Shown piece by piece: positions 1 through 12,429 of a stretch of DNA of 12,854 nt (the first letter of the stretch is position 1; each line of letters opens with the position of its first letter). The position numbers were made by a program, and so were the translations under genes. The notes under the pieces were generated by a model. That model was not told the origin of the DNA, did not search any database, and was given only the letters and a program-made list of their open reading frames with translations. This DNA is from a virus: positions 1 through 12,854 of IMG/VR virus record IMGVR_UViG_3300032331_003080; one strand, 5' to 3'.

Positions 1-179
1 AAGTGGTACACCTTGTCGTTGGGACGCACACGATCATTCCAACGACGGATCATGGCTTCATCCATCTCATCAGGATCAGTCCATGGACGCAATTTCACTT
101 CAGGATCGTCTGGGTGTGTGAACTTGCATACACCAGCGTGTCCAAAGTGTGTGTCACTGACTAAAAATACTGCTGGCAT
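1..179 (-). CDS. metallophosphoesterase (calcineurin-like), N-terminal 59 codons; continues past window start
   Basis: Below the ORF-track length cut-off. Hand translation from ATG 179..177: MPAVFLVSDTHFGHAGVCKFTHPDDPEVKLRPWTDPDEMDEAMIRRWNDRVRPNDKVYH. SDTHFGH matches phosphoesterase motif I. AAGGAG (191..186) lies 6 nt upstream of the ATG. Confidence 0.7.
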   Translation of the reverse strand, partial: MPAVFLVSDTHFGHAGVCKFTHPDDPEVKLRPWTDPDEMDEAMIRRWNDRVRPNDKVYH

Positions 180-189
180 ATCTTGCTCC

Positions 190-408
190 TTATACTTGTT
201 TTTTCTTCTTCACTCGTCCAATGCGATCAGCCTTGTTCCAATCATATGCAATGCCATCTGGGCATACGCCATTGCTCACTGCATCAACACCAAAGCGTCC
301 GCATATTTCAAAATCTTTTCCGTGGATCACCACAAAGGCATCCAGGGTTTTGGCATGAGTCATAGCGTCTGCTAGTGTGGTAAATTCTTGTTGTTCTATT
401 TTGTACAT
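190..408 (-). CDS. hypothetical 72-aa protein; candidate leaderless mRNA
   Basis: ORF track gives 190..414. The first ATG (414..412) abuts the -10 hexamer. The second ATG (408..406) begins 7 nt after the -10. No Shine-Dalgarno upstream. No recognisable family. Confidence 0.5.
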   Translation of the reverse strand: MYKIEQQEFTTLADAMTHAKTLDAFVVIHGKDFEICGRFGVDAVSNGVCPDGIAYDWNKADRIGRVKKKKQV

Positions 409-414
409 TTCCAT

Positions 415-443
415 ATTATAGCATTTTGGAAATATTTGGTCAA
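415..443 (-). promoter_or_regulatory. sigma70-type promoter P1 (class A): TTGACC-17 nt-TGcTATAAT
   Basis: Minus strand: -35 TTGACC at 443..438, -10 TATAAT at 420..415, 17-nt spacer, TGc extended -10 at 423..421. Belongs to a conserved block of about 37 nt shared with P7, P8 and P9. Confidence 0.7.
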
Positions 444-446
444 GTA

Positions 447-956
447 CTACTTATTACTTACTTCTTGCCAGGTATGATCGCCCATGTATCTTACCTGCAT
501 TAAGTACTGGTAATCTTCAGGAATGCCAGTAGACCAATCGGTTGGACCGTTATGTACTAGCAGTGTCTTTTCATGTCTTTTGTGCTGAACCAGCCAATAG
601 CATTTGCCCATTACAAGTTGAAAATTGTATTCTGCGGCATACACCGCATCAGTCACGTCAAGTCTGCGTTTGATATCTTGAGCTTGTTTTTCTAATACTG
701 CTACCAACTCCATGATACGATCATATTCTTGCTGGGCATACATCCTAGCATGATTGATCATTAGGTCTTTTTGTTGTTCGACTGGAACTAGATCAAACTT
801 GGGACCCGATGTGCTGGTAGCATATGGTGTTACATTGCGATTAAAAAAATGTACTAAGGTGTTGCCAGTAGTGACATCAAAACTATCTCGACCCTTGGCG
901 CTGTTTGATTGCTCAGAATCCCGCATGGTCCTTGTGACGTCGACGAGGTTCAACAT
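447..956 (-). CDS. hypothetical protein (about 160-169 aa)
   Basis: Long ORF, last gene of the P2 operon. Start is uncertain: ATG 956 has no SD and overlaps the omega-like gene by 44 nt; ATG 926 has AAGGA only 2-3 nt upstream. No family assigned with confidence. Confidence 0.65.
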   Translation of the reverse strand: MLNLVDVTRTMRDSEQSNSAKGRDSFDVTTGNTLVHFFNRNVTPYATSTSGPKFDLVPVEQQKDLMINHARMYAQQEYDRIMELVAVLEKQAQDIKRRLDVTDAVYAAEYNFQLVMGKCYWLVQHKRHEKTLLVHNGPTDWSTGIPEDYQYLMQVRYMGDHTWQEVSNK

Positions 957-1179
957 CTAGAGTCTTAGTAAGATATTCGCGACCAGTTTTTCCCTCTTCA
1001 ATTTCCTTGAGAGTGGTCAACATAACACCATGTTTGCAATTCACACGTGGACGATCACCACGGCTGATTTCTCTTGCTCTACGACTAGCAATCAAGATTA
1101 AATCGTATCTATTGCCCACAGCCTTGACTGCGTTTTGGCTAGTTAATCCTGCATATTCTTCATGTTCTAAATCAGTCAT
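913..1179 (-). CDS. rpoZ: RNA polymerase omega subunit (RpoZ)-like protein, 88 aa
   Basis: SQNAVKAVGNRYDLILIASRRAREI...TTLKEIEEG aligns with E. coli omega [25 protein letters not shown]...IALREIEEG (recalled from memory). AAAGGA lies 5 nt upstream of ATG 1179. There is an 8-nt overlap (ATGACTGA) with the upstream gene. Confidence 0.8.
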   Translation of the reverse strand: MTDLEHEEYAGLTSQNAVKAVGNRYDLILIASRRAREISRGDRPRVNCKHGVMLTTLKEIEEGKTGREYLTKTLDVEPRRRHKDHAGF

Positions 1180-1465
1180 CTTGGTCCTTTGTTGTTAATC
1201 CGTTTGAGTGTTTGTCACGCAACTGTTCTAAATCTTGGAACAGCCGTTTTTCTTGTGCTGTTAATCGATCCTTGTGCGTCTTGCGTGGATTACCGCACAA
1301 GTAACAGGCCGGATTACCACAGTCCATTGCACGATGCTTGGCATAACGATGTGGCGTCTTGATTTGAGCACCATGAGCCTGGGCAATTTTTACTTGCCTG
1401 GATATGGCCACATCCTTTTTATGCCTGCGTTTTGAATTTAGGTATCTGGCTAAATCGTTACTCAC
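1172..1465 (-). CDS. small basic Cys-containing protein (97 aa), possible zinc-binding
   Basis: GTG start at 1465..1463 with AAGGA 5 nt upstream. Lys/Arg/His-rich, contains CGNPACYLCGNP. First gene after promoter P2 and translationally coupled to the omega-like gene. Confidence 0.6.
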   Translation of the reverse strand: MSNDLARYLNSKRRHKKDVAISRQVKIAQAHGAQIKTPHRYAKHRAMDCGNPACYLCGNPRKTHKDRLTAQEKRLFQDLEQLRDKHSNGLTTKDQDD

Positions 1466-1488
1466 AGTGATCCTTTGTGTTGTTCAAC

Positions 1489-1517
1489 AGTATACACTCT
1501 ATACAGTACAATGTCAA
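1489..1517 (-). promoter_or_regulatory. sigma70-type promoter P2: TTGACA-17 nt-TATACT
   Basis: -35 TTGACA at 1517..1512, which contains the TGA stop of the hldD-like gene. -10 TATACT at 1494..1489. 17-nt spacer. Confidence 0.55.
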
Positions 1518-2278
1518 CCGTTTAGAGCTTGATACGTTCGAGTCATATCAGCACATGTGTACATTTGGTAACTGTTTTTTAAATTCTCAGGCATGGGTAT
1601 CTCGTCAATAGGCACACCAAATTGTTCGGCTACTTGTCGAAAACTTCGAGTTTTACCAGTTCCGATATTGAATATACCACTAACAGGCCTTGTGAGAAAT
1701 CTCAAGTGCATGGCCACAACATCTTGTACAGGAACAAAATCTCTAAGATAATTTTCACTACCTTCAAACACCCGTATTCTACCTGTTTCTTGTGCTTGTT
1801 TTGCAAATTGATGATAAGGACTTGCCTGTGTACCTTTGTGATCTTCTCCGGGACCGTACACATTGAAATATCTAAAACCTTGTACCGTGTTACCACCTTG
1901 GTGTCTAGTATGATGCCGCTCAAACAAATACTTGCTCCAGGCATAGGGTGTGCAAGGATCGGGCGGAGCATCTTCGTTAAAAGTACTAACCAACCCATAT
2001 ACACTGGCTGAACTAGAGTATTGTAAATTGACCCCAAATCGTTTACAGTCATCAAACAGTACGACACTAAAATCATAGTTTTGAGTAAACACTCGGTCCA
2101 CATCACGTTCGGTAGTTGAACTGATTGCACCCATGTGTATGACCCAGTCGTAGTCTATCACTCCTGGACACGGTCCGTCCGCCCATTCAAATGTATCAAC
2201 CTCATGTTCCATTCCGTTAAGAGCCTGTAACATATTGCTACCAATAAATCCTTGATGGCCTGTTAGTAATATTTTCAT
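1514..2278 (-). CDS. hldD: ADP-L-glycero-D-manno-heptose 6-epimerase-like SDR (short form, 254 aa)
   Basis: N-terminal GxxGxxG ([12 protein letters not shown]). [37 protein letters not shown] and [14 protein letters not shown] match E. coli HldD/RfaD blocks [37 protein letters not shown] and SGIFNLGTGRAESF (recalled). ATGA overlap with the cupin gene. Confidence 0.88.
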   Translation of the reverse strand: [254 protein letters not shown]

Positions 2279-2631
2279 TTTTGACTGTCTCCCGGTAACA
2301 CACGATAGTTGTCTTCTACTGAGTCCGGGGTCGACACTTCAATGATAGTGCCCTCTTCTAAACATATCAGTTGATGCGGTTGCAATGGTCTATTTCTCCA
2401 GGTAGTGCCCGGTTTAAGTATTGCATCATGCTGGCTGGCATCATTGGTTTCAATGAATACTACCTTGAACAAACCATCCAATACATACCATGATTCATCC
2501 TTCTCAGCATGGAAGTGCATGCTGAATCGAGCACCGGTATTGAATTTCATAAGTTTGCCACAGTACTTGTCGTTAGTGGCCCAAATCAATTCACTACCCC
2601 ATCCCTTTTCTACATATCCTTCTAATCTCAT
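2275..2631 (-). CDS. cupin-fold protein, type II phosphomannose-isomerase-like
   Basis: KGWGSELIWATNDKYCGKLMKFNTGARFSMHFHAEKDESWYVLDG fits the PMI/GMP type II cupin pattern (WG..E.....YxxK.l.v..G..lS.q.H..r.E.w.V..G). ATGA overlaps on both sides. Confidence 0.75.
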   Translation of the reverse strand: MRLEGYVEKGWGSELIWATNDKYCGKLMKFNTGARFSMHFHAEKDESWYVLDGLFKVVFIETNDASQHDAILKPGTTWRNRPLQPHQLICLEEGTIIEVSTPDSVEDNYRVLPGDSQK

Positions 2632-3386
2632 CGGATTTCCTCTAACGCAGGTGCATACACACCAAAGTGTTGTACAGTGACCGCACTGGCTCGGATTGCA
2701 AATTCTATTGCAGATTTCATACGTTTGGTCACCAGGTATTGATAGGCCAGTGCTGCCAAAAACGTGTCTCCGGCACCGGTCACATCTGAAACTTCTACGG
2801 TAACACCTGGATATTGATGTTCTGCACCATCTGAATAGTATACAGCACCATCACCGCCTTGTGTCACGATCAAATCAGTACAGCCACTGGTGATACGACT
2901 GTGTTCAAGTGCATTGATTTTTACAATGCATCTATCTAGTCTTGCTAGATCAGTTTTTTTGGTATCCACAAATACAGGACCAGAAAAATTCTGTTGTATT
3001 TGTTCTAGAACTTCATAGGTCACTGTGCCTTTGTTGTAGTCGCTCACAACCACGGCATCATACTCCTCAAAGATTTCGTTGAATACTACAGCAGGCTCAG
3101 ATTCAGCATCTGCGTCTATTCGCACTATGTGTTGTTTGCTACGCTGATCAATCAGTCTTGTTTTTACAGATGTATTACCGGTAATAACACCAACTGCACA
3201 GCCTAATCGTTCAAGGTTGGCTCTAACATTGGCAGCCATGCCGTGACGTTGTTCTTCATGGCTGACTTGGAAAATAGGAACAGGTGCTTCGGGACTGAGT
3301 CGATCCACTGTGCCGTAACGGTATATGTCCAGGCAGGTGTCACCGATTACTAATACTTTGAATTTTTTCTGTGGTTGAGAATCCAT
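2628..3386 (-). CDS. hldA: D-glycero-beta-D-manno-heptose-7-phosphate kinase-like (PfkB family; HldE domain I-like)
   Basis: KVLVIGDTCLDIY..G.VDRLSPEAPVPIF is the HldE/RfaE kinase-domain N-terminus. DVTGAGDTF is the PfkB signature. Shorter (252 aa) than the E. coli kinase domain. Confidence 0.82.
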   Translation of the reverse strand: MDSQPQKKFKVLVIGDTCLDIYRYGTVDRLSPEAPVPIFQVSHEEQRHGMAANVRANLERLGCAVGVITGNTSVKTRLIDQRSKQHIVRIDADAESEPAVVFNEIFEEYDAVVVSDYNKGTVTYEVLEQIQQNFSGPVFVDTKKTDLARLDRCIVKINALEHSRITSGCTDLIVTQGGDGAVYYSDGAEHQYPGVTVEVSDVTGAGDTFLAALAYQYLVTKRMKSAIEFAIRASAVTVQHFGVYAPALEEIR

Positions 3387-3732
3387 CTATTCTTTCAAAA
3401 AATACAATGCTTGAGCAAACTTCTGATCCCACAATAGCACGATCGCGATAGTCTGATCCTTTGACCATTATAGCACATTCTGCAACGATGTCAACAAGTT
3501 CCAGATCAGAATCAAATATCCTAACCTCATCTACCGAGCGTAGATTACTCAAGAGTTCTTGCCGTTCTGCTTGTGTATTTACAGGACGGCTCACGCCCTT
3601 CAATTCTTTTACTCGTCGATCAGAGTCAATGGCAACCACAAGATGGTCTCCTAGACTCCTGGCATACGTCAACAATTCTAGGTGTCCGGAATGTAAGATA
3701 TCAAATGTGCCGTTGACTATGATTCGTTTCAT
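3340..3732 (-). CDS. hldC: D-glycero-beta-D-manno-heptose-1-phosphate adenylyltransferase-like (HldE domain II-like cytidylyltransferase fold)
   Basis: NGTFDILHSGHLELLTYARSLGDHLVVAIDSDRRVKELKGVSRPVN...VKGSDY...GFSTTEKI parallels E. coli HldE domain II [46 protein letters not shown]...VKGGDY...GCSTTNII (recalled). The HxGH motif is present. Confidence 0.85.
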   Translation of the reverse strand: MKRIIVNGTFDILHSGHLELLTYARSLGDHLVVAIDSDRRVKELKGVSRPVNTQAERQELLSNLRSVDEVRIFDSDLELVDIVAECAIMVKGSDYRDRAIVGSEVCSSIVFFERIDGFSTTEKIQSISNR

Positions 3733-3860
3733 TAGATCTCTTCGTAGTCAGCTTTGAATCCACCACACTCAGGGCAAGGAAAGTCCTCAGGAAGATCTTC
3801 CCATTTGCCTTCTGTTTCTTCATCGTGTACATGACCACAAATTACGCATACGTGTTCCAT
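3732..3860 (-). CDS. rubredoxin-like protein, 42 aa (missed by ORF track)
   Basis: Hand translation: MEHVCVICGHVHDEETEGKWEDLPEDFPCPECGGFKADYEEI. Contains CxxCG...CPxCG. GGAGG lies 7 nt upstream. TAATG overlaps at both ends (3862..3858 and 3734..3730). Confidence 0.8.
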   Translation of the reverse strand: MEHVCVICGHVHDEETEGKWEDLPEDFPCPECGGFKADYEEI

Positions 3861-4309
3861 TATAGTGCCTCCAACTTTTGTTTGTAAAGATTTGCGTGAT
3901 GTTGCTCTACTCGTTGTAGTGCGGCAAAACGCTTTTCTGCTTTGGCCAACACAGCTCGGAACTGTTCAGCATGTTCGCGGCTTTCGTCAATTTGGTGCTG
4001 TGCTTCTCGAATAGCAGCCTCGTTGCCTTCGTTGTGCGCGGCGTTTTTCATGCGTGGATACATGTAAGTGAACTCTTCAGTTTCGCCCTCAATGGCTTTT
4101 TCCAAACATTCTCGAGTGGTTGGCTTGCCAACAAGCAATTCCAAATGTCCCCAGGCATGTTTGAGTTCTTGATCTGCTGTGTGTTCAAAGTGTTGGGCAA
4201 CATCTTCGTAACCTTCTTCGCGAGCAATACGTGCGAAGTAACGATATTTGATGTGAGCTTGTGACTCCCCAGCAAGTGCGCTTTCTAAATTTTTAATTGT
4301 AATTGACAT
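3860..4309 (-). CDS. rubrerythrin-type diiron (ferritin-like) protein lacking the fused rubredoxin domain
   Basis: LAGESQAHIKYRYF, EHTADQELKHA, IEGETEEFTYMYP and ESREHAEQF give two E...ExxH diiron motifs typical of rubrerythrin. AAGGAG lies 5 nt upstream of ATG 4309. Confidence 0.85.
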   Translation of the reverse strand: MSITIKNLESALAGESQAHIKYRYFARIAREEGYEDVAQHFEHTADQELKHAWGHLELLVGKPTTRECLEKAIEGETEEFTYMYPRMKNAAHNEGNEAAIREAQHQIDESREHAEQFRAVLAKAEKRFAALQRVEQHHANLYKQKLEAL

Positions 4310-4333
4310 ACATTCTCCTTATTAAGTAGTACT

Positions 4334-4363
4334 ATTATATATTATAGTAACAGCCTAAGTCAA
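4334..4363 (-). promoter_or_regulatory. sigma70-type promoter P3: TTGACT-18 nt-TATAAT
   Basis: -35 TTGACT at 4363..4358, -10 TATAAT at 4339..4334. A second TATAAT at 4346..4341 is too close to the -35. The leader AGTACTACTTAATAAGGAGAATGT runs to ATG 4309. Confidence 0.55.
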
Positions 4364-4408
4364 CGGGTTTTACCATTGTATTTTTTAATGATAGTAATAG
4401 ATTTTGCC

Positions 4409-4488
4409 TGGTACCCCTGCTTGGATTCGAACCAAGACCATGTACTCCCTTTTGAGGAGAGTGACTTTACCAATTTGTCTACAGGGGC
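4409..4488 (-). tRNA. tRNA with anticodon CAA (Leu by anticodon), atypical short variable region, CCA encoded
   Basis: Hand fold: acceptor GCCCCTG/CAGGGGT (G1:U72 wobble), D-arm GAC/GTC, anticodon arm CTCTC-CTCAAAA-GGGAG, 8-nt variable region, T-arm CTTGG-TTCGAAT-CCAAG, discriminator A, CCA. Confidence 0.65.
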
Positions 4489-4657
4489 AATAAATATTGT
4501 ATGAAGAACGATCCAGGATCAGTAGCACCGTTGTATAGAGAATTTTCTACAGAGCCCTATGAACCCCAGGTTCACGCTACCACTTGTTGTGTATTTACAT
4601 TAGATCCGTTGTTTATTGCCGCAGATTTAAAATTTCAACTTACTCCGTTATTGAACG

Positions 4658-4912
4658 TTAATCATCCCGAGATACTTGCCGTTCTCTGACCTTCATTCCA
4701 AACCAAGTGCCAACAAATGCACCTGCCAGGGCCGGGATCAAGGCCCAATGGTCAGCAGTATAATTGATAACTGCTATACTAGCAGTAAATGTCACAACCA
4801 TGCTCCAAAAGCTGGCGTGCCAGGGTCTATCATTCTGAATCGATTTTACAAAATACACGTAAATCAAATCAGTAAAGAATACTGCAAAAAATGTTACTGT
4901 GTATTCTAACAT
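4658..4912 (-). CDS. small membrane protein, about 3 predicted TM segments with charged C-terminus
   Basis: Hydrophobic stretches YTVTFFAVFFTDLIYVYFV, FWSMVVTFTASIAVINY and WALIPALAGAFVGTWFG. Tail is KVRERQVSRDD. Start is directly adjacent to the upstream stop (TAAATG). Confidence 0.6.
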   Translation of the reverse strand: MLEYTVTFFAVFFTDLIYVYFVKSIQNDRPWHASFWSMVVTFTASIAVINYTADHWALIPALAGAFVGTWFGMKVRERQVSRDD

Positions 4913-5143
4913 TTATTTTTTCTTTTCCAGTGGGGGTTCTTTGGTCTTGTCAAGTTCATGTGGCTCGGCAAATCTAGATTGGTTTCCCCAGGCTGCCCAA
5001 CTATCCTCAGTAAACAGTCGCACAGGTTTCCAAAAACGTACAATAATATTGTTAACCACAACAATACCGATTACAATCGAAATCAATGCTATCATTGTCA
5101 AAATGCTACCAGCTAGAAACGTTGCGGCGTGATCCATATCCAT
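4913..5143 (-). CDS. small single-pass membrane protein (76 aa)
   Basis: One TM segment (FLAGSILTMIALISIVIGIVVVNNIIV) and a Lys-rich C-terminus. AAGGAA lies 7 nt upstream of ATG 5143. Immediately downstream of tRNA-fMet. Confidence 0.6.
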   Translation of the reverse strand: MDMDHAATFLAGSILTMIALISIVIGIVVVNNIIVRFWKPVRLFTEDSWAAWGNQSRFAEPHELDKTKEPPLEKKK

Positions 5144-5164
5144 GAGTGTGTTCCTTATATGAGT

Positions 5165-5239
5165 TGGTTGCGGGGGAAGGATTCGAACCTCCGTCTTTCG
5201 GGTTATGAGCCCGATAGTCTACCACTGACGTACCCCGCG
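5165..5239 (-). tRNA. initiator tRNA-fMet (anticodon CAU), CCA encoded
   Basis: Sequence CGCGGGG...TCGGGCTCATAACCCGA...CCCCGCAACCA. It has the C1xA72 mismatch and three consecutive G:C pairs closing the anticodon stem, as in E. coli tRNA-fMet (recalled). T-arm GGAGG-TTCGAAT-CCTTC. Confidence 0.85.
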
Positions 5240-5243
5240 TTGT

Positions 5244-5272
5244 ATTATAACTTATTTACAGCTGATTGTCAA
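5244..5272 (-). promoter_or_regulatory. sigma70-type promoter P4 (class B, perfect consensus): TTGACA-17 nt-TATAAT
   Basis: -35 at 5272..5267, -10 at 5249..5244. The tRNA-fMet 5' end (5239) is the 5th nt after the -10. The TAA stop of the upstream CDS (5258..5256) lies inside the spacer. Confidence 0.72.
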
Positions 5273-5966
5273 TGTTTTCTAAAACATAGTCAGCAAATGC
5301 TTGATGTGCTGGTTCAAAAAAATGTCCCCAATCAGTATGGGGAAACTTTTGTTCTAAGCACCATTCGCAAAATTTAGTAGTACCAATTGGCCAATATCCA
5401 ACGTCGATAGTGCCTGGTATGCCCGCAAAACTATCAATGTTTATGATTTTTATATTTTGATTTTTTGCCAACATATTAACTGCAAGAATGTTTTTGAGTT
5501 TGTTTAATCTACCGCGCTGACCATCGCTTTCGTATGTAATCCAATATTTAGAAAAGTCAGCGTATGCATCAGCATCGGATATCATGCCACCAAGACGCTG
5601 TCCTTCTAGCATGACATGATTGCGAGTCACATTATTTAAAACAACATTTCCGTGAGTTACTGCCAACCAACGTTGTTGTTTTTCATACCATATTTCGGTT
5701 CTAGAATCGCCAGTCCAACAAGCAATCACAATGTCATCTTGATCTAGTTTTTGGCTTTCAAATATTCTAAACATAGCATCATTACTGCCTCCAGATATGG
5801 CGTGATTGCGGACTTCATATCCTAGGGCTTGTGCTATTTTAACTGGATAACTTTTGGTATATCCATACTCTTCTAAATTTTGTGATGATGGTAAATTCAA
5901 GCCTGGCTCTTTGTATATTTCGGCACCAGCCGCATGACTACACCCTAATATCAATGCTTTTTTCAT
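5256..5966 (-). CDS. SGNH/GDSL-like hydrolase-fold protein (putative)
   Basis: N-terminal LILGCSHAAG (block I-like, Ser present), ISGGSNDAMF (block III GxND-like), C-terminal EPAHQAF (His block). Distant paralog of 9342..10118. Confidence 0.6.
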   Translation of the reverse strand: MKKALILGCSHAAGAEIYKEPGLNLPSSQNLEEYGYTKSYPVKIAQALGYEVRNHAISGGSNDAMFRIFESQKLDQDDIVIACWTGDSRTEIWYEKQQRWLAVTHGNVVLNNVTRNHVMLEGQRLGGMISDADAYADFSKYWITYESDGQRGRLNKLKNILAVNMLAKNQNIKIINIDSFAGIPGTIDVGYWPIGTTKFCEWCLEQKFPHTDWGHFFEPAHQAFADYVLENIDNQL

Positions 5967-5971
5967 AATTT

Positions 5972-6060
5972 TGGCGGAAAGTATAGGAATCGAACCTATG
6001 CACCGTTATTCACAGTGATGGATTAGCAATCCATTGCCTTAACCACTCGGCCAACTTTCC
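5972..6060 (-). tRNA. tRNA-Ser (anticodon GCU), class II with long variable arm, CCA encoded
   Basis: Hand fold: GGAAAGT/ACTTTCC acceptor, ATGGA-TTGCTAA-TCCAT anticodon arm, variable arm CACTG-TGAATAA-CGGTG, T-arm ATAGG-TTCGATT-CCTAT, discriminator G. Confidence 0.9.
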
Positions 6061-6098
6061 TTTGTTTTCCAGTGTTAGATATTTAACTAAGTATTTTT

Positions 6099-6989
6099 AT
6101 GGTGCCAATATTCTTATTAACTTACAATGAACAGGATTCTTTTGTAGAAATTTACAACGACCAATTTGTACGAACTCACTTCGGCCCCAACAACATACAT
6201 TTTTATGTGTTAGACAATGGCAAGCAACCAAAAATCGAATCTTGGTGTCAACGCCACGGATACACATACTATGCCAGTGAATACAACATTGGCAGTTCGG
6301 GTGGCTACAATTGGATTTTTAAAACAGCATTTCGACTTAGGTTACAAGCGGCTGTATTAATGCAGGCCGATGTTGAAATTACGTCGGCCTGGCCGCTTTT
6401 GTTTACCTATCAACTTACTAGAGCGTTTGGAACGACACATTTTATTACTTGGCCACAAACTTTTCATCACAGTGATTATAGTGCAGAAATATCTTATCAT
6501 GATCTTAAATCAAATTTACCAAATTTAGGAAACCTTGTGGGATTTGATCCGATTATGATGTACCACAAAAATTGTTATTTTGATGAAAATTACGTGGTCA
6601 CACACTGTGATGATTTAGAATTTTTGTATCATATGCGTACTAAAAATATGAATGCTGTCAATGCAATTTCGCTATTGCCTGGTGCAGTAGAAACAGCTCA
6701 ACGATTTGTATTGCCTGGCACCGAAACTCGAACTCATTCACACGTGATAACATTTAATAATGAAGAAATAAGAATACATCATGTCAGCCAATTTTATGAA
6801 AGTCATGATCCTTGGTTAGCAGTTAACAAACCTTATTACGATCTTATGTGGGAACAATCACAATGCCAAACAAGAGCACCGTACGATCCTGCTCGGTGGC
6901 AACAGTTTGGATACCCTGCTTATCCAGTGCAACACGAACTTGATCGGTTTTTTAAACAATATCCAAAATTAACACATGGAGCGGAATAG
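6099..6989 (+). CDS. glycosyltransferase family 2-like protein
   Basis: This is the only convincing plus-strand gene. VPIFLLTYNE (GT2 N-terminal xxTYN motif), VLDNGKQ, YNIGSSGGYNWIFKTA (N.G.aGG.N block), QADVE (DxD-like). No SD upstream. The last 13 nt overlap tRNA-Gly on the opposite strand. Confidence 0.65.
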   Translation: MVPIFLLTYNEQDSFVEIYNDQFVRTHFGPNNIHFYVLDNGKQPKIESWCQRHGYTYYASEYNIGSSGGYNWIFKTAFRLRLQAAVLMQADVEITSAWPLLFTYQLTRAFGTTHFITWPQTFHHSDYSAEISYHDLKSNLPNLGNLVGFDPIMMYHKNCYFDENYVVTHCDDLEFLYHMRTKNMNAVNAISLLPGAVETAQRFVLPGTETRTHSHVITFNNEEIRIHHVSQFYESHDPWLAVNKPYYDLMWEQSQCQTRAPYDPARWQQFGYPAYPVQHELDRFFKQYPKLTHGAE

Positions 6990-7050
6990 CGGAATCGAAC
7001 CGCTGACTTGAACTTGGAAGGATCTCGTTTTACCATTAAACTAATTCCGC
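6977..7050 (-). tRNA. tRNA-Gly (anticodon UCC), CCA encoded, imperfect anticodon stem
   Basis: GCGGAAT/ATTCCGC acceptor, D-arm GTTT-AATGGTA-AAAC, anticodon loop CTTCCAA, T-arm AGCGG-TTCGATT-CCGCT, discriminator U (Gly-like). The AGATC/GTTCA anticodon stem has AxA and UxU mismatches. Confidence 0.72.
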
Positions 7051-7052
7051 AT

Positions 7053-7361
7053 TTAAATTGTTTGCTTTTTAAATTCTTCCTCGGCTTTTTTGTGCAAGAC
7101 AAACCATCTATTATGAATTAAATTAGCATATTCATAATTGTAATCTAATTGTGCATAATCTATTAATTGTTTATACAAATTCTCACTCAAAGTAGGCGCA
7201 TAAAGTTCAACCAAATCAATTAAAATTCCGTTGATACTATTTGCTAGTGTTGTTACCTCAGCAAATCTCTGTTCACAAAGGTTAATAAACACTTGTTCGT
7301 TCACACCATTGAAGTCTGGATTGATTTTTTTTATATAACAAACTTGGTAAAAATTTATCAC
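7053..7361 (-). CDS. C-terminal portion of a frameshift-interrupted hypothetical gene
   Basis: ORF track 102 aa. The nominal start is GTG 7361 with a weak SD. It overlaps the upstream ORF only around the A8 run (7332..7325). See the frameshift finding. Confidence 0.5.
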   Translation of the reverse strand: MINFYQVCYIKKINPDFNGVNEQVFINLCEQRFAEVTTLANSINGILIDLVELYAPTLSENLYKQLIDYAQLDYNYEYANLIHNRWFVLHKKAEEEFKKQTI

Positions 7362-7656
7362 TACTTTCTATAAAAATATTTAATTCATTAAATTGAGCTA
7401 ATTTGTTTTGCCATTCAAAATCATGATCTGGGTGCATGAACATTATAAATCTTTTTAAATCATCTCTCCATATCCATTCATAATCCAACCAATTTGAATG
7501 TGTTCTTTTGAGTGGGTATATACTATTAAGAATATAATTTACTTTGTCTGTAATAGATTGAAAATTAAAAAAATTAAATTTTTCATCTATTAATAATAAC
7601 CATCTTAAGTGATTACCGCCGGCTCCCCAAGGAGCCCAAATTGTTAAATTACTCAT
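7282..7656 (-). CDS. N-terminal portion of a frameshift-interrupted hypothetical gene
   Basis: ATG 7656 with GGAG 5 nt upstream. Very AT-rich. The frame ends 14 codons after the A8 run. No family recognised. Confidence 0.6.
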   Translation of the reverse strand: MSNLTIWAPWGAGGNHLRWLLLIDEKFNFFNFQSITDKVNYILNSIYPLKRTHSNWLDYEWIWRDDLKRFIMFMHPDHDFEWQNKLAQFNELNIFIESSDKFLPSLLYKKNQSRLQWCERTSVY

Positions 7657-7691
7657 CTATGCTCCGAAAAACTTGGCGGTCCCAGGAAGAA

Positions 7692-8432
7692 TTAAACTCC
7701 CGCCGTGAAAGGGCGGCGTCCTGCCCAATATGTGGTTTTTAACCAAGTTTGGTAAATGTGGTCAGCCATGGCTTGATGCTGGATCAAATTTGGTTCAATC
7801 CCGTTCAAGATACCATCACGATCCTGCACACTTGCATATTGTTCTCTAGCCAAGGTCCATTTAGGATCTTCGTCCATAGCCCATTCACGGGCTTTGTCTG
7901 CATCCATCTCTATATGAAACTGCATGGCCAGATGTGGCCCGATAGCAAATGCTTGGTTAGCACAAGCGGCTGAACCAGCCAGGCGTGTGGCACCAGTGGG
8001 TATACTAAAAGTGTCGTAGTGCCACTGTATCACGGTAGAGGTAGGTGCGGAACCAAACCACTGTTGTGTTTCAGGAACATCCTCATATTCAATGGGTTGC
8101 CAACCTATTTCAGGTTGCGGTGATATTCCGATTGTGGCACCTAGTGCTCGAGCCATCAATTGCCCACCCAAACAATGTCCTATGACCGGACGATCCAATC
8201 GCATGGCTTGTAGTATTAAAATTTCTGCTTGGCGATTACTCAGCAAGGGATCATTAGCACTCATGCCACCACCCATCACAGCCAAGGCTGAGTAAGGTTC
8301 TATGCTGACAGGAAACTGTTGCCACAACCCTGCATTGCGTGTCTCATGCGGAATATCGTGTTGGCCCAACCAGGTCACAAGGTATGCAGGACGCTCGGGT
8401 GTTTGGTGTTGTAGTATTAAAACAGGTTTCAT
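7692..8432 (-). CDS. class I glutamine amidotransferase (GuaA-GATase-like stand-alone domain)
   Basis: VIGHCLGGQLMA (nucleophile-elbow Cys) and LAMQFHIEMD (His-Glu) match the GATase1 triad. Visibly higher GC than its neighbours. No SD before ATG 8432. Confidence 0.82.
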   Translation of the reverse strand: MKPVLILQHQTPERPAYLVTWLGQHDIPHETRNAGLWQQFPVSIEPYSALAVMGGGMSANDPLLSNRQAEILILQAMRLDRPVIGHCLGGQLMARALGATIGISPQPEIGWQPIEYEDVPETQQWFGSAPTSTVIQWHYDTFSIPTGATRLAGSAACANQAFAIGPHLAMQFHIEMDADKAREWAMDEDPKWTLAREQYASVQDRDGILNGIEPNLIQHQAMADHIYQTWLKTTYWAGRRPFTAGV

Positions 8433-8449
8433 TGGGATATTTAGTCAGT

Positions 8450-8469
8450 AGAAACCCGCCGAAGCGGGT
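8450..8469 (-). terminator. intrinsic terminator ending the ssrA transcript
   Basis: Minus strand ACCCGC-TTCG-GCGGGT followed by TTTCT. GC-rich stem with a UUCG tetraloop. Confidence 0.6.
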
Positions 8470-8512
8470 CCTGGTGATTTCTGTTACGAGGTATTTCCTA
8501 CCCTAGGCTACT

Positions 8513-8545
8513 TTACGCGGCCAATGCGAACTGTGAGTCGTTAGC
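8513..8545 (-). other. tmRNA tag reading frame: ANDSQFALAA + UAA
   Basis: GCT AAC GAC TCA CAG TTC GCA TTG GCC GCG TAA. The upstream context GCAAAAAAAGTAAAC resembles the E. coli GCAAAAAATAGTC context before the resume codon (recalled). An in-frame upstream GCA (8560) would give AKKVNANDSQFALAA. Confidence 0.7.
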
Positions 8546-8724
8546 GTTTACTTTTTTTGCTTGATTAACGGTCATCGCCTACCGTGTTGCCGTCGCTACT
8601 ATCTAGCTCAATCGATCCTGTGTCATCCCCACCTAAATATACTGTATACACTTAGGTGGAGATGCCGGGCACTGCCCCCGGGTCTTGAACTCCTTCGTTT
8701 TGAAGGGATTACAACAATATTTGT

Positions 8725-8753
8725 ATTATATATTTATTTGATCAACTTGTCAA
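8725..8753 (-). promoter_or_regulatory. sigma70-type promoter P5 (class B, perfect consensus): TTGACA-17 nt-TATAAT, drives ssrA
   Basis: -35 at 8753..8748, which contains the TGA stop of the upstream small CDS. -10 at 8730..8725. Predicted start near A8718. Confidence 0.75.
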
Positions 8754-8917
8754 CCACCACGTCCGGTAACCTTGCGCATGGGCTTACCACCAGGTGAGGG
8801 TGGTGCTTTGCGTTTGGCCGCTTTCTGTTGTGTCTTGCTTAGTTTGGCATCAGGTTGATGTATGCCTTGCTTTTTTGCAAGTGCCTCTTTTATCTCTTCT
8901 GTAAAGTTTTTGCTCAT
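8750..8917 (-). CDS. small basic protein, 55 aa
   Basis: ORF track 8750..8965 trimmed to ATG 8917, which has AGGAG 6 nt upstream. The longer form would overlap the tRNA at 8932..9007. Sequence: MSKNFTEEIKEALAKKQGIHQPDAKLSKTQQKAAKRKAPPSPGGKPMRKVTGRGG. Confidence 0.55.
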   Translation of the reverse strand: MSKNFTEEIKEALAKKQGIHQPDAKLSKTQQKAAKRKAPPSPGGKPMRKVTGRGG

Positions 8918-8931
8918 CGCGTACTCCTGGT

Positions 8932-9007
8932 TGGTGCCTTGGGAGGGAATCGACCCCCCAGTCAAAGGATTATGAGTCCTCTGCTTTGACCGTTAAGCTA
9001 CCAAGGC
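8932..9007 (-). tRNA. tRNA with anticodon CAU (elongator Met or Ile2/lysidine type), CCA encoded
   Basis: GCCTTGG/CCAAGGC acceptor, D-arm GCTT-AACGGTCA-AAGC, anticodon arm GAGGA-CTCATAA-TCCTT, T-arm GGGGG-GTCGATT-CCCTC (G instead of U at position 54), discriminator A. Confidence 0.8.
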
Positions 9008-9015
9008 CCATGTGT

Positions 9016-9044
9016 ATTATATAGTAATATTGTTGCTATGTCAA
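9016..9044 (-). promoter_or_regulatory. sigma70-type promoter P6 (class B, perfect consensus): TTGACA-17 nt-TATAAT
   Basis: -35 at 9044..9039, which contains the TGA stop of CDS 9041..9349. -10 at 9021..9016. The tRNA 5' end (9007) is the 9th nt after the -10. Confidence 0.75.
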
Positions 9045-9349
9045 GCGATTAACCACGTAGTACTACGTTTTAATTCAATGCTTTCTTTTCCATCGTATTC
9101 AGTGATGCGAAACTCTTCACCCTGTGGCACCCACTCAACTATTAGGTGTGGTAATGCGCCTAAAAAGATAGTGGGATATTTGAGTCGGATGTAGATTTCT
9201 AATTTTTCCATTTGCTCAGATTCAACATACTCCACAATAACAGGATCAAATACCAATTCGGGATATTTAGTATTCCAGGTATACCAGCCTGCACCAAACT
9301 CTGGGCTGTACACCACACCTACCTTGCCATCTTGTATTAGTTTATTCAT
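9041..9349 (-). CDS. hypothetical protein, 102 aa
   Basis: Clean ORF with an 8-nt overlap (ATGAATAA) with the upstream gene. No family recognised. Confidence 0.7.
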   Translation of the reverse strand: MNKLIQDGKVGVVYSPEFGAGWYTWNTKYPELVFDPVIVEYVESEQMEKLEIYIRLKYPTIFLGALPHLIVEWVPQGEEFRITEYDGKESIELKRSTTWLIA

Positions 9350-10118
9350 CTTCCATACTTAATAAATTTTCCCATTGAGCTTTGCGATCCCAATAAAACG
9401 GCACCCATTTTTCCTTGTCAACAAGTGTTTTCAAATTGATTAATCGAGTGTTATCTAATTTGAAAGGTAATTTATGTAATAAACATTCAACCAGCCAGTT
9501 AAGATGTACAGCAGGTGATGGTTGAACTTCAGTTTGTCTAATGTTATTGTATTTAGGTTGAGTACTGTACTCGCTCATGCCTGCCCACGGTTTGTGCCAT
9601 GCCCAATTTGCATCTGTTAGTGTATTTTTTTGTGCCAAAGACAAATACTCAGGAGAATACGTAAACATATAATAGTATTGAATATTATTATTGTTAAAGT
9701 AATTTTTTAATAACAACATATAATTATAAGTTCTCAAGTTGGCTTGAGTTTCTTCTATATAAAAATCGTGATAGTGTGCAACTTCGGATTGTGTGCTACT
9801 ACTACTCAACCACCAATTATTATCTCCCAACTTAACTGTATTTTGTGAATACACAGGATCTGTGTTAATAATTGTATTCCACCTGGCGGTGTTGATTAAT
9901 TTATCTAGTCGGCGAGGACTTGCCCATTGCATAATAAAAATTCCGTCAGTAGGTGTTTGTAATGCCGCATTAAGCAAAAACTCATTGCCTGCACCAATAC
10001 CAGCAGTGTTTACTACCTCAACTTTGGGATAAATTGCTTGTAATAATTGCGGCCACTCCGGCCATATATGCCCCATGGCATAGCCATCTCCAAATGTATA
10101 GATTTTTTTTATATCCAT
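9342..10118 (-). CDS. SGNH/GDSL-like fold protein, divergent paralog of 5256..5966 (nucleophile position is Gly)
   Basis: IYTFGDGYAMGH (block I-like with GDG instead of GDS), GIGAGNEF (block III-like), SPAVHLNW (His block). Low GC. No obvious SD. Confidence 0.6.
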   Translation of the reverse strand: MDIKKIYTFGDGYAMGHIWPEWPQLLQAIYPKVEVVNTAGIGAGNEFLLNAALQTPTDGIFIMQWASPRRLDKLINTARWNTIINTDPVYSQNTVKLGDNNWWLSSSSTQSEVAHYHDFYIEETQANLRTYNYMLLLKNYFNNNNIQYYYMFTYSPEYLSLAQKNTLTDANWAWHKPWAGMSEYSTQPKYNNIRQTEVQPSPAVHLNWLVECLLHKLPFKLDNTRLINLKTLVDKEKWVPFYWDRKAQWENLLSMEDE

Positions 10119-10152
10119 CTAGTGGGGTATTGTTCTGCTGGTACGGGCATGA

Positions 10153-10326
10153 TTAATATACCTCTTTAATAATTTCAAATTCAGTTTTGGGATATTTTTC
10201 TTTGAATTCTTCAGATTGCACAAATTTATTAAAATCTGTTGCAGTAAAGAATACCCTTTTGAAAACACTTTGCAATTTTCCCTTTGGGACTATTGTCAGA
10301 TAGACGCTTGTTGCTTTGCCTGCCAT
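10153..10326 (-). CDS. hypothetical small protein, 57 aa (missed by ORF track)
   Basis: Hand translation: MAGKATSVYLTIVPKGKLQSVFKRVFFTATDFNKFVQSEEFKEKYPKTEFEIIKEVY. AAGGA lies 6 nt upstream of ATG 10326. It fills an otherwise empty 230-nt gap. Confidence 0.6.
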   Translation of the reverse strand: MAGKATSVYLTIVPKGKLQSVFKRVFFTATDFNKFVQSEEFKEKYPKTEFEIIKEVY

Positions 10327-10347
10327 TGTGGTTCCTTTAGTTGGTGT

Positions 10348-10674
10348 TTAGTCTGCACGGCTCATCATGTATGCTTTAATGCCGAACTTTTCCAAAGTTT
10401 CGGCATAGGCACGGGCGCCAGTTTCTTTCACATCCATGCTTTGTGTAAAGCTACCACCGGGGTTCCACAAGTCCAAGCCACCTGAGTAAGATTTGCGGAA
10501 GCCCACAGTTTTAAGAGCACGACCTAATTTGGTACTGGCTTTGACAGGTACGTTGACCCAGGCAAAACCACAGTAGGCCATTTCGCCATGTTTGGCAACA
10601 AAGTCTGCTTCGGCTTTACGAGCGGCCTCTGTAGCAGTATTGTGAACGGATTCAATGTTTTCGAGTGCAATCAT
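10348..10674 (-). CDS. hypothetical protein, 108 aa
   Basis: The ORF-track N-terminus (to 10737) starts at the TTG of the -35 hexamer. The real start is taken as ATG 10674 with AAGGAG 6 nt upstream. Sequence begins MIALENIESVHNTATEAARKAEADFVAKHGEMAYCGFAWVNV... Confidence 0.7.
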   Translation of the reverse strand: MIALENIESVHNTATEAARKAEADFVAKHGEMAYCGFAWVNVPVKASTKLGRALKTVGFRKSYSGGLDLWNPGGSFTQSMDVKETGARAYAETLEKFGIKAYMMSRAD

Positions 10675-10704
10675 TCGGGGCTCCTTGTTTGTGTTTATGT
10701 CCAT

Positions 10705-10733
10705 ATTATAGCATTTTGGGAATAATCGGTCAA
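10705..10733 (-). promoter_or_regulatory. sigma70-type promoter P7 (class A): TTGACC-17 nt-TGcTATAAT
   Basis: -35 at 10733..10728, -10 at 10710..10705. It shares 25 consecutive identical nt with P8. Confidence 0.7.
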
Positions 10734-10737
10734 CCAA

Positions 10738-11088
10738 TTACTCACCGTACTCGTCAGACTCTGCGTAATCTTCTGATGCTTCGCAAAATATTTTCATCCA
10801 ATGTTTCTTGGGCAAGGCATGCAACAATTCAGGAGTCACATAACATGGATTTTTGAGTTCGTATGTTTCTCTAGCACGACGGGCTAACTTTTGTATTACT
10901 TTTTCATAAGTTTCAGCAACCACAGGGTCAGCCAACATGTCCACATATATTTTTTTCTTGCTCAGTTTGAACTTCTTGAGCATAACTGGCTCCCAAGTTT
11001 GATCATAGTCGCCGTATGCAATGTCCTTGCACACTTTCTGCAAACTTACTGGGGTTACCTTGATTGTGTTTTTTAAAGTTACTTGCAT
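10738..11088 (-). CDS. hypothetical protein, 116 aa, acidic C-terminal tail
   Basis: ORF track trimmed to ATG 11088, which has AGGAG 6 nt upstream. The track's start is the TTG of the P8 -35 hexamer. The tail is EASEDYAESDEYGE. Confidence 0.7.
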   Translation of the reverse strand: MQVTLKNTIKVTPVSLQKVCKDIAYGDYDQTWEPVMLKKFKLSKKKIYVDMLADPVVAETYEKVIQKLARRARETYELKNPCYVTPELLHALPKKHWMKIFCEASEDYAESDEYGE

Positions 11089-11119
11089 TCTGGCTCCTGT
11101 TTTGTTACTGTATGTCCAT

Positions 11120-11148
11120 ATTATAGCATTTTGGGAATTATTGGTCAA
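11120..11148 (-). promoter_or_regulatory. sigma70-type promoter P8 (class A): TTGACC-17 nt-TGcTATAAT
   Basis: -35 at 11148..11143, -10 at 11125..11120. The TAA stop of the GIY-YIG gene (11140..11138) lies in the spacer. Confidence 0.7.
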
Positions 11149-11470
11149 CCTTTTTGACCCGTATATCTGTGTTCAAAACAGGTGTATACTTTTGTATTAA
11201 TTCCCGCTCCAATTTGTGTGCCTGGGCTTTGCCACGTACAATGTCCACGATTGCAAAATTCACAGCCCGCTCGCCGTTTGTGCGAATTGCTTCGTACAAG
11301 TTCCAACTCTTGCTTTCAGTGCGACTGCGGTAGATGTGCTTGTTAACACGGCTCTGCAGGCTCATGTTAATAGTACGCTGGGTTTTAGCGGTAATACCAA
11401 TGTAGTACTCTTCCCCAATTTGGAGCATGTATACTATATGAGTGCGATCTGAACGTTTCTTTCTTATCAT
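11138..11470 (-). CDS. GIY-YIG nuclease catalytic domain only (110 aa); candidate leaderless mRNA
   Basis: [17 protein letters not shown] (GIY...YIG), R...H (RVNKH), [20 protein letters not shown] (conserved Glu and Asn) resemble the I-TevI/Seg catalytic domain. The only start upstream of the first beta-strand is ATG 11470, 7 nt after the P9 -10. Confidence 0.72.
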
Positions 11471-11476
11471 GTGTGT

Positions 11477-11505
11477 ATTATAGCATTTTGGGCATTTTTG
11501 GTCAA
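11477..11505 (-). promoter_or_regulatory. sigma70-type promoter P9 (class A): TTGACC-17 nt-TGcTATAAT
   Basis: -35 at 11505..11500, -10 at 11482..11477. Downstream sequence is ACACAC then ATG. Confidence 0.7.
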
Positions 11506-11536
11506 CCAAAAAATACTACTACAAAAGTACTACTTT

Positions 11537-11896
11537 TTATGTACGTTCAAGATAACGCAAAAAACGGCTCAAATCCCCATACATAGCATACATCATGGCT
11601 TGTTCACTTCCGAACAAATGCAACACAGGAGTTTTTCCCGGCTCAATATAATATGGACAATCCAATTTCCTGCTCAACACCAACAAGTCGCCCATGCGAA
11701 AAATTTTAGGAACTGCAAACCCATGCGAGGCAATACCGTATTTTCGAAGCATATCATATCCACGTTCAGTAAGTCTAAGTCCATCTTGTTTGGTAAAAAT
11801 CATCCACCAATCAACAAGAGCTTGTTCGTAGGTAAGGCGCTCTTCCGTAGGAAGAAATTCTAACAGTTTAAGAGTGATTTGTTTTTTACTTGACAT
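11537..11896 (-). CDS. hypothetical protein, 119 aa
   Basis: Clean ORF with an 11-nt overlap with the upstream gene. No family recognised. Confidence 0.7.
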   Translation of the reverse strand: MSSKKQITLKLLEFLPTEERLTYEQALVDWWMIFTKQDGLRLTERGYDMLRKYGIASHGFAVPKIFRMGDLLVLSRKLDCPYYIEPGKTPVLHLFGSEQAMMYAMYGDLSRFLRYLERT

Positions 11897-12182
11897 CGGG
11901 GTACACTTGAGCCCCTTGTGTCAAAAGCACGACTGTGAACTTGTCGGTCTTGAATTGTGTGTTGAGTTTACGTGCCAAGTTTTTGGCATGCCCGGGATTT
12001 GAAAAGCTGACCTTCTTGTACTTGGGTCCTGGGTACTGTGTCAGCATGTTAGATGTTTTGAGATTGATAGGCTTGTTGTCGTAAAACACCGCCCAAACAC
12101 CTTCAGAGGCCAATACTTGTTCGGTCTTGTAGGTTTGTTTGTTTGTGTGCTCGATTAATACATTAGGTTTTGGGCGGCTCAT
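11886..12182 (-). CDS. hypothetical protein, 98 aa
   Basis: ATG 12182 with GGAG 6 nt upstream. Lys-rich. No family recognised. Confidence 0.7.
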   Translation of the reverse strand: MSRPKPNVLIEHTNKQTYKTEQVLASEGVWAVFYDNKPINLKTSNMLTQYPGPKYKKVSFSNPGHAKNLARKLNTQFKTDKFTVVLLTQGAQVYPDVK

Positions 12183-12213
12183 CGTTATCTCCGTAGTTTA
12201 TTTATCTAATAAA

Positions 12214-12429
12214 CTAGGGGTTTTTGAAACCACCGCCACTCAATTCTACCGTAACAGTTTCTGTTTTGGATGCTGTTAATTGTGTACGTAATACTTCAAG
12301 AGTCAGCAGTAACTTAGTGATATCACTGTGTAAATCTTTAGCATCGCGCATGTTCATGATGAAGTCCCGTTGGCCACGTGCTTCATGTGCTTTGATACTA
12401 TCAACAAAACGATTTATATGCAGGCTCAT
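12214..12429 (-). CDS. hypothetical protein, 71 aa
   Basis: ATGA start/stop overlap with the MazG-like gene (12429..12426). Confidence 0.65.
   Translation of the reverse strand: MSLHINRFVDSIKAHEARGQRDFIMNMRDAKDLHSDITKLLLTLEVLRTQLTASKTETVTVELSGGGFKNP

Follow-up and report, generated by a model that had tools for sequence, protein, structure and literature searches.

A cupin as candidate sedoheptulose-7-phosphate isomerase in the ADP-heptose cassettes of T4-like phages, joined in one phage operon to a rubrerythrin–rubredoxin pair

ADP-heptose is an essential precursor of the lipopolysaccharide (LPS) core, a proposed antibiotic-adjuvant target and a potent agonist of innate immunity. Bacteria make it by means of GmhA, HldE (or HldA together with HldC), GmhB and HldD, and the GmhA step is held to be the way into heptose biosynthesis universally. 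The subject of this work is a stretch of viral DNA of 12,854 nucleotides (IMG/VR record IMGVR_UViG_3300032331_003080, positions 1 to 12,854; hereafter the window), which carries a six-gene operon for a rubrerythrin, a rubredoxin, an HldC-like adenylyltransferase (hereafter transferase), an HldA-like kinase, a small metallo-cupin and an HldD-like epimerase. The phage module shares with the bacterial pathway a homologous kinase, adenylyltransferase and epimerase; the division into separate HldA and HldC proteins is also found in some bacteria, and an HAD phosphatase is encoded by relatives of the phage. In contrast to the bacterial pathway, the module contains a metallo-cupin and no SIS-fold GmhA, and its phosphatase is variable and absent from the window. 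The phage enzymes are also shorter than the bacterial ones (kinase 252 against about 315 residues, transferase 130 against 145, epimerase 254 against 310), and the transferase gene lies ahead of the kinase gene and overlaps it, which reverses the domain order of HldE.

A viral counterpart has been described in T4-like cyanophages, whose LPS/heptose cluster (P-SSM2/P-SSM5, S-CAM1, S-SM2, S-SSM7 and SynMITS9220M01; PMC7378029) holds the same four families, with the cupin and the kinase at 32-44% identity to those of the window. Unlike the window, this cluster includes a small HAD protein and a carbamoyltransferase, has HldD on the opposite strand and tail-fibre genes as neighbours, and lacks the rubrerythrin–rubredoxin pair. 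The heptose cluster is thus already known in cyanophages. Literature proposing a cupin phosphoheptose isomerase, or studying phage ADP-heptose, was also sought; nothing relevant was found, and the proposal of a cupin isomerase made here is new to the literature searched.

With regard to the cupin, the nearest described systems are the cupin sugar and sugar-phosphate isomerases (PF01050, PF07385, the archaeal cupin-type phosphoglucose isomerase (PGI) and the protein of PDB entry 7zvy). They have in common with the phage protein a single barrel and an HxH-E-H metal site and, by analogy and in the proposed chemistry only, an aldose–ketose interconversion in the manno configuration. They differ in that structural alignments give 14-18% identity, the window cupin stays under the Pfam thresholds and no cupin is known to act on a heptulose. 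In a passage of PMC7304191, cupin-type PGI is cited as a case in which a cupin has convergently taken over from a sugar-phosphate isomerase with an unrelated fold, and this precedent, as cited there, makes a cupin substitute for GmhA plausible.

The reading favoured here, with moderate confidence, is that the cupin most likely serves as a non-homologous sedoheptulose-7-phosphate isomerase replacing GmhA. It is favoured because the cupin belongs to the invariant core of the module, GmhA is never found with it, the cyanophage hosts are reportedly free of heptose, and the conversion of sedoheptulose-7-phosphate to D-glycero-D-manno-heptose-7-phosphate is the heptose analogue of the phosphomannose isomerase (PMI) reaction. 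For the wider claim, that the cupin founds a new isomerase family unrelated to GmhA and completes a minimal, host-independent ADP-heptose pathway in aquatic T4-like phages and in bacteria of the candidate phyla radiation (CPR), the genomic evidence leaves our confidence evenly balanced.

The distribution of the cassette carries most of this argument. No near DNA match to the window exists among GenBank phages. At the protein level, the cupin is found in 36 GenBank phage records and the kinase in 35, a nearly identical set of T4-like cyanophages that includes P-SSM2/5, S-CAM1/3, S-SM2, S-SSM7, S-T4 and P-TIM68. Their genes run in the order carbamoyltransferase, transferase, kinase, an HAD protein of 108-115 residues with a DxDGT motif, and cupin, followed by HldD on the opposite strand, and the clusters adjoin tail-fibre genes. 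Metagenomes add more than 4,300 relatives of the cupin family, counted after clustering at 90%. In IMG/VR, the family is encoded by at least 593 stretches; the contigs concerned reach 370 kb and bear portal, sheath, neck and terminase genes of T4 type.

Two sets of IMG/VR loci were compared. The first comprised 80 loci ascertained by the cupin, 39 of them with at least 4 kb on both sides; the second comprised 91 loci ascertained by the kinase (11 of window type and 80 of P-SSM5 type, the kinase being 44-93% identical to the P-SSM5 query), 47 of them with at least 3 kb on both sides. Around the well-flanked cupins, the transferase was present in 36/39 loci, the kinase in 35/39, HldD in 32/39, an HAD protein in 18/39 and GmhA in none. 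The reciprocal test gave an even closer association: all 47 well-flanked kinases were accompanied by the cupin and by HldD, 46 by the transferase and 41 by an HAD protein. The genes remain linked while their order is shuffled (N-K-C-D, C-N-K, C-D-N-K and K-C-N-D, where N is the transferase, K the kinase, C the cupin and D HldD), and in some relatives a GT4 glycosyltransferase lies directly upstream of the module. Cupin, kinase and transferase form the invariant core, and the phosphatase is replaceable.

GmhA is missing throughout. The preliminary description of the window had noted that it contains neither a SIS isomerase nor an HAD phosphatase, and this holds: blastp found no GmhA in the window, and neither tblastn with phage HAD proteins nor a scan for the DxDGT motif found an HAD phosphatase there. 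By blastp, no GmhA homolog was detected at any of the 171 viral loci (80 cupin-ascertained and 91 kinase-ascertained) or of the 31 loci from metagenome-assembled genomes (MAGs). When E. coli GmhA was used in tblastn, 13 GenBank phage records with a GmhA homolog were retrieved, none of which bears the cupin. The query sequence was validated by its 97-100% matches to enterobacterial DNA and by its recovery of the distant GmhA of Caulobacter phage Cr30 at 1e-18. Phage Cr30 itself presents the complementary pattern, with a SIS GmhA, a kinase and a GT2 protein and no cupin. The LPS of cyanobacteria is reported to lack heptose (PMC4390846), and the cyanophage modules need an isomerase of their own on account of that report.

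The phosphatase follows a different course. That the pathway lacks GmhB, as first described, is correct for the window but peculiar to this phage, since its closest relatives have a small HAD gene between the cupin and HldD. Across the loci, three types of HAD protein occupy the phosphatase position, namely small EcbF-like, NT5C-like and GmhB-like HAD-IIIA proteins; at locus L007, the cupin is followed by HldD and accompanied by a GmhB-like HAD. Mutants of E. coli in gmhB are leaky. Four activities are indispensable to the pathway (isomerase, kinase, phosphatase and adenylyltransferase); the epimerase is not strictly needed.

In GenBank, the small DxDGT HAD protein of cyanophages is labelled 'phosphoheptose isomerase' (L001 5087-5431 in P-SSM5 and L002 5045-5368 in S-CAM1), and the cyanophage cupin '(putative) nucleotidyltransferase' or 'cysteine dioxygenase'. 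These systematic mis-annotations of the HAD protein and the cupin mask the missing GmhA. The genome announcement PMC7378029 gives the T4-like cyanophage cluster the same heptose interpretation and the same labelling.

Beyond phages, several MAGs of Patescibacteria (CPR) encode a cupin at 48-51% identity as the divergent neighbour of a transferase–kinase pair, and neither HldD nor a SIS gene was found at these loci. The cupin–transferase–kinase trio occurs at L094-L103, and at L099 it lies beside acyl-carrier, ketoreductase, dehydratase and FkbH-like genes. This context suggests a heptose-derived, possibly acylated, glycan in bacteria without LPS.

The identities of the remaining three heptose enzymes rest on family-specific matches, and Pfam and NCBIfam best matches agree with the names that all six products of the operon had been given at the outset. 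The transferase finds TIGR02199 (rfaE_dom_II) at 110 bits (cut-off 181.5) as against 52.5 for TagD, the kinase TIGR02198 (rfaE_dom_I) at 159 bits (cut-off 345) as against 61.7 for ribokinase, and the epimerase TIGR02197 (heptose_epim) at 217 bits (cut-off 274.6) as against 64.5 for GalE; the heptose-specific models are ahead of the next family by about two-fold or more in bits. Phage protein families are phrog_7878 for the transferase (E=8e-40), phrog_8133 for the kinase (E=9e-87) and phrog_540 for the epimerase. Alignment of the epimerase shows that GxxGxxG, the catalytic Ser and YxxxK are retained, but that the protein has lost an internal segment after beta-2 and is truncated at the C-terminus, and its ortholog in L007, at 301 bits, passes the TIGR02197 cut-off. 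HldD and the GmhB-like neighbours point to a heptose as the sugar.

The cupin family was aligned from 67 diverse members of 38-85% identity. Motif 1 reads G-X5-HXH-X4-E-X6-G and is complemented by the histidine of the second motif. W11, G12, E14, H41, K44, E98 and D107 are invariant, and K9, Y23, C24, K26, S37, H39, E46, H86, S100 and R110 are kept in at least 90% of the members; the His/His/Glu/His metal site (H39, H41, E46 and H86) is accordingly complete, and several basic residues are conserved. The AlphaFold2 (AF2) model has a pLDDT of 89 and is all-beta, and Foldseek matches it with a probability of 1.0 to many cupins, as expected of the beta-barrel fold. Among the fold matches are D-lyxose/D-mannose isomerases, the Thermococcus PMI 7zvy of about 110 residues, CapF and KdgF; searches of the PDB by sequence and profile returned generic metallo-cupins only. 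The phage family is phrog_7851 (E=2e-39). At the level of domain models, the window cupin matches Cupin_2, WbuC and, weakly, MannoseP_isomer, and across the 67 members the PMI C-terminal domain (PF01050, MannoseP_isomer) is matched by 39, D-lyxose isomerase (PF07385, Lyx_isomer) by 36 and NCBIfam GMP_PMI by 37. Three relatives exceed the PF01050 gathering score (P0133 with 31.0, P0235 with 26.3 and P0174 with 24.8). Sequence and predicted structure together establish a mononuclear-metal cupin compatible with sugar isomerase chemistry, and do not by themselves fix the reaction.

According to the proposed scheme, the heptose cassette would by itself lead from sedoheptulose-7-phosphate all the way to ADP-L-glycero-beta-D-manno-heptose. 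The cupin, being of the PMI, lyxose-isomerase or cupin-PGI type, would turn sedoheptulose-7-phosphate into D-glycero-D-manno-heptose-7-phosphate, and the PfkB kinase would phosphorylate O-1. The 7-phosphate would then be cleaved off by a phosphatase, in close relatives the small HAD protein and here an enzyme encoded outside the window or supplied by the host. AMP would be attached by the HldC-like enzyme, and the short HldD would epimerise C-6''. Candidate acceptors of the heptose are glycans of the virion or of the host surface.

The preliminary description had proposed the cupin as the GmhA substitute, and the comparative evidence (co-occurrence, absence of GmhA, the metal site, similarity to PMI and lyxose isomerase, and domain fusions) strongly supports that part of it as a prediction. 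Several observations nevertheless weigh on the other side. The cupin family is known from genes and a predicted fold, and Foldseek cannot tell isomerase cupins from dioxygenase, decarboxylase or epimerase cupins. The window cupin remains under the gathering score of every function-specific model, with 19.1 for PF01050 (threshold 23.6), and the NCBIfam model that most members match is WbuC (55/67, best E=3.8e-8), while 25/67 members match the CapF cupin domain of a nucleotide-keto-sugar epimerase (PF14667). The transferase, kinase and epimerase of the window all score below their NCBI equivalog cut-offs, because the heptose proteins are shortened and divergent. Either gmhA or gmhB could lie outside the 12.9-kb window, and a host GmhA may be available to this freshwater phage. 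Finally, in 4/39 well-flanked loci the cupin does not have both kinase and transferase within 10 kb, and distant cupin homologs in MAGs (32-49% identity) often stand without pathway neighbours; for these two reasons, the cupin family may not be monofunctional.

The alternative that survives best, although we consider it unlikely, is that the cupin is a metal-dependent epimerase or keto-isomerase of the WbuC/CapF type, with ADP-heptose or a heptose phosphate as its substrate and perhaps the HldD-like short-chain dehydrogenase/reductase (SDR) as its partner, and that the host GmhA takes the first step. WbuC cupins and the C-terminal cupin of CapF are, like the phage protein, small metal cupins of nucleotide-sugar clusters; among NCBIfam subfamilies they are matched best, and they match well in fold too, CapF being among the top hits, and in many loci the cupin adjoins HldD. 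WbuC is not known to have an established activity. The matches to both models are, however, all under the cut-offs: the window cupin reaches 26.5 for WbuC (TIGR04366, cut-off 42), and for PF14667 the best E-value among family members is 7.9e-7, with every score below 28.7 among the matches listed. The CapF cupin is moreover fused to an SDR and acts on a UDP-4-keto sugar, whereas the phage cupin persists with kinase and transferase where no SDR is near, as in the C-N-K phage loci, the GT4-N-K-C-HAD loci and the CPR loci. Its fusions point the same way: the cupin is joined to NT5C-like and other HAD domains (P0133 and P0169) and to a cytidylyltransferase-like transferase domain (P0189), and among 20 multidomain relatives examined none was fused to an SDR. 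In cyanophages, whose hosts are reportedly heptose-free, such a pathway would also have no first step.

The isomerase reading, if true, has several implications. The gap in the pathway, which present annotations conceal, would be closed by a second isomerase unrelated to the first, and the inference of heptose capacity from genomes and viromes would change. Phages of heptose-free hosts such as marine picocyanobacteria would make ADP-heptose straight from sedoheptulose-7-phosphate, an intermediate of the Calvin cycle and the pentose phosphate pathway. The ADP-heptose pathway would rank with the most widely distributed sugar modules that T4-like phages of aquatic habitats possess, occurring also in CPR bacteria, and a glycoconjugate with heptose, so far unrecognised, would be expected on the virion or the infected cell surface. 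What abundant phages heptosylate is a testable question, for which P-SSM2 and S-CAM1 with their hosts are culturable systems.

The first two genes of the operon belong to a different story. The rubrerythrin matches Pfam PF02915 at 61.5 bits (threshold 22.8), a diiron ferritin-like domain, and covers positions 9-147 of the 194 in the NCBIfam RuberyRbr profile; the rubredoxin matches Pfam Rubredoxin at 30.9 bits. As in the rubrerythrins and rubredoxins of anaerobes and cyanobacteria, the former is a diiron four-helix bundle with two ExxH motifs and the latter has a CxxC...CPxC pattern. Canonical rubrerythrin, in contrast, has a fused C-terminal rubredoxin-like domain, which the phage protein lacks; the rubredoxin is here a separate ORF of 42 residues overlapping it by 1 nt. 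This small protein is presumed to provide in trans the C-terminal domain of canonical rubrerythrin and to be the electron donor to rubrerythrin. The split rubrerythrin, a diiron domain with a separate mini-rubredoxin, would reduce H2O2 with host reductant.

The preliminary description had seen the operon as a fusion of peroxide defence with heptose synthesis. The two are indeed co-operonic in the window, but their union is not a conserved unit. A survey of related rubrerythrins in IMG/VR yielded 402 stretches, and in the best 80 loci, examined for their neighbours, a mini-rubredoxin follows rubrerythrin in 79 and heptose genes lie within 6 kb in only 3; the pair has no family in PHROGs v4. Nucleotide similarity of the window to the relatives closest to it (L012, L016, L067, L079 and L081) stops at the start codon of the transferase, and an AhpC/TSA peroxiredoxin and a CMD/AhpD-like protein are encoded upstream of the heptose module in the closest relatives and in the window-type loci L203-L213. 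On these three grounds, the rubrerythrin–rubredoxin and heptose cassettes are independently mobile, and their joining is lineage-specific. The operon is a local mosaic: within one freshwater clade, one or the other of two non-homologous pairs takes the peroxide slot beside the heptose cassette. It may be understood as two phage cassettes of auxiliary genes, independent of each other, under a single early-type sigma-70 promoter. The alternation of the two pairs in one slot makes peroxide detoxification a recurrent, replaceable phage function in this clade.

A functional tie between the peroxide pair and the heptose module, for instance to shield the metal cupin or the supply of sedoheptulose-7-phosphate from H2O2, in which case selection would favour their shared operon, is kept as an explanation because relatives hold AhpC/AhpD in the same slot, but we judge it improbable. 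In L012, the genes of the non-homologous AhpC and AhpD-like pair show translational coupling to that of the transferase, and in L051 a rubrerythrin stands directly upstream of a transferase–cupin pair; mononuclear Fe(II) enzymes are also general targets of H2O2. However, apart from the scarcity of heptose genes near rubrerythrin, a peroxidase gene of any kind is found near only about 6/80 cupin loci and 8/91 kinase loci and with none of the marine cyanophage modules surveyed, and the pattern fits a shared variable region of one clade.

More doubtful still is the idea that the module makes no heptose at all and that its PMI-like cupin, along with the kinase and the transferase, activates a hexose or polyol phosphate, giving for instance a derivative of mannose or glycerol linked to ADP or CDP, for although the three enzymes are below their equivalog cut-offs, the transferase also matches TagD and the nearest function-specific Pfam model of the cupin is a hexose-phosphate isomerase, the best matches are heptose-specific by the bit margins given above, orthologous loci combine an HldD above its equivalog cut-off with a GmhB-like phosphatase, and HldD chemistry needs a secondary alcohol at C-6 and hence a heptose. 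An RmlC-like, metal-independent 3,5-epimerase was also considered for the cupin and is rejected in view of the intact HxH-E-H site and of an FdtA match in only 1/67 members.

The operon itself is as first described in span, gene order and junctions. Six minus-strand ORFs, from 4309 to 1514, form one overlapping run. The junctions of rubrerythrin with rubredoxin and of rubredoxin with the transferase are both TAATG, with an overlap of 1 nt; the transferase and kinase genes share 47 nt; and the junctions of kinase with cupin and of cupin with epimerase are both ATGA, with an overlap of 4 nt. The promoter that had been placed ahead of rubrerythrin is present, and an AAGGAG Shine-Dalgarno sequence precedes the rubrerythrin ATG by 6 nt. 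The features are collected in the table below.

Table 1. Features of the operon and its borders in the window, with the gene pair that takes the place of the first two genes in relatives.
Feature	Position	Strand	Evidence and remarks
tRNA-Leu(CAA)	4409-4488	minus	ARAGORN; upstream boundary of operon
Sigma-70-type promoter, TTGACT-18-TATAAT	4334-4363	minus	promoter scan, 11/12 consensus; precedes rubrerythrin
Rubrerythrin diiron (ferritin-like) domain, 149 aa	3860-4309	minus	Pfam, NCBIfam
Mini-rubredoxin, 42 aa, CxxC...CPxC	3732-3860	minus	Pfam
HldC-like heptose-1-phosphate adenylyltransferase, 130 aa	3340-3732	minus	TIGR02199, phrog_7878
Internal promoter, TTGACA-16-(TG)TATAAT	3467-3494	minus	12/12 match, extended -10; inside transferase gene
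HldA-like PfkB heptose-7-phosphate kinase, 252 aa	2628-3386	minus	TIGR02198, phrog_8133
Single-domain metallo-cupin, 118 aa	2275-2631	minus	cupin motif, AF2, phrog_7851
Short HldD-like ADP-heptose 6-epimerase, 254 aa	1514-2278	minus	TIGR02197
Promoter, TTGACA-17-TATACT	1489-1517	minus	promoter scan, 11/12; begins at HldD stop codon
AhpC/TSA and CMD/AhpD-like pair	L012 7849-8909; also L016, L079, L081, L203-L213		occupies the slot of rubrerythrin–rubredoxin in the window

Transcription may be less simple than the single unit proposed at the outset, which did not include the perfect internal promoter found here. This promoter lies about 80 nt upstream of the kinase start, with a perfect match at the equivalent site in the relative L081, and because it sits inside the transferase gene, kinase, cupin and epimerase may also be transcribed separately from it. 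The promoter at the end of the HldD gene opens the next transcription unit, consisting of a 97-aa ORF, the RpoZ-like gene and the DUF2452 gene, and has a perfect counterpart at the same position in L012 and L019.

Genes of the window lie almost all on the minus strand, among many near-consensus sigma-70 promoters. The RpoZ homolog (RNA polymerase omega subunit; 913-1179, minus strand) matches Pfam RNA_pol_Rpb6 at 45.5 bits, and a homolog of 49-67% identity lies beside the heptose module also in L012, L016, L019, L067, L079 and L081. The DUF2452 protein (447-956, minus strand, 31.9 bits) and a MazG/PRA-PH-like pyrophosphohydrolase (12426-12854, minus strand, 32.9 bits) are likewise products of auxiliary genes in the region; the ORF of the latter begins at the final base of the window. 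The sole sizeable plus-strand ORF (6099-6989, 296 aa) had been taken for a GT2-like enzyme; it has no Pfam, PHROG or PDB match to bear this out, and its AF2 model from the single sequence is unusable (pLDDT 33). A class-I glutamine amidotransferase-like ORF (7692-8432, minus strand; flank 7001-7500) lies in a stretch of 43-48% GC that adjoins one of 29% GC, a jump which suggests separate acquisitions.

Besides tRNA-Leu(CAA), four minus-strand tRNA genes are interspersed in the window, bringing the number to five: Met (5165-5239), Ser-GCT (5972-6060), Gly-TCC (6977-7050) and Met (8932-9007). Perfect 12/12 promoters are found directly upstream of both tRNA-Met genes (5272-5244 and 9044-9016), and the equivalent region of relatives contains up to 21 tRNAs. 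A repeat of about 53 nt occurs in four copies (395-447, 10685-10737, 11100-11152 and 11457-11509). Its minus strand carries the promoter TTGACC-17-TATAAT, whose spacer is extended and conserved, and forms a conserved cassette ahead of small ORFs, and parts of it are kept in the relatives L054 and L079.

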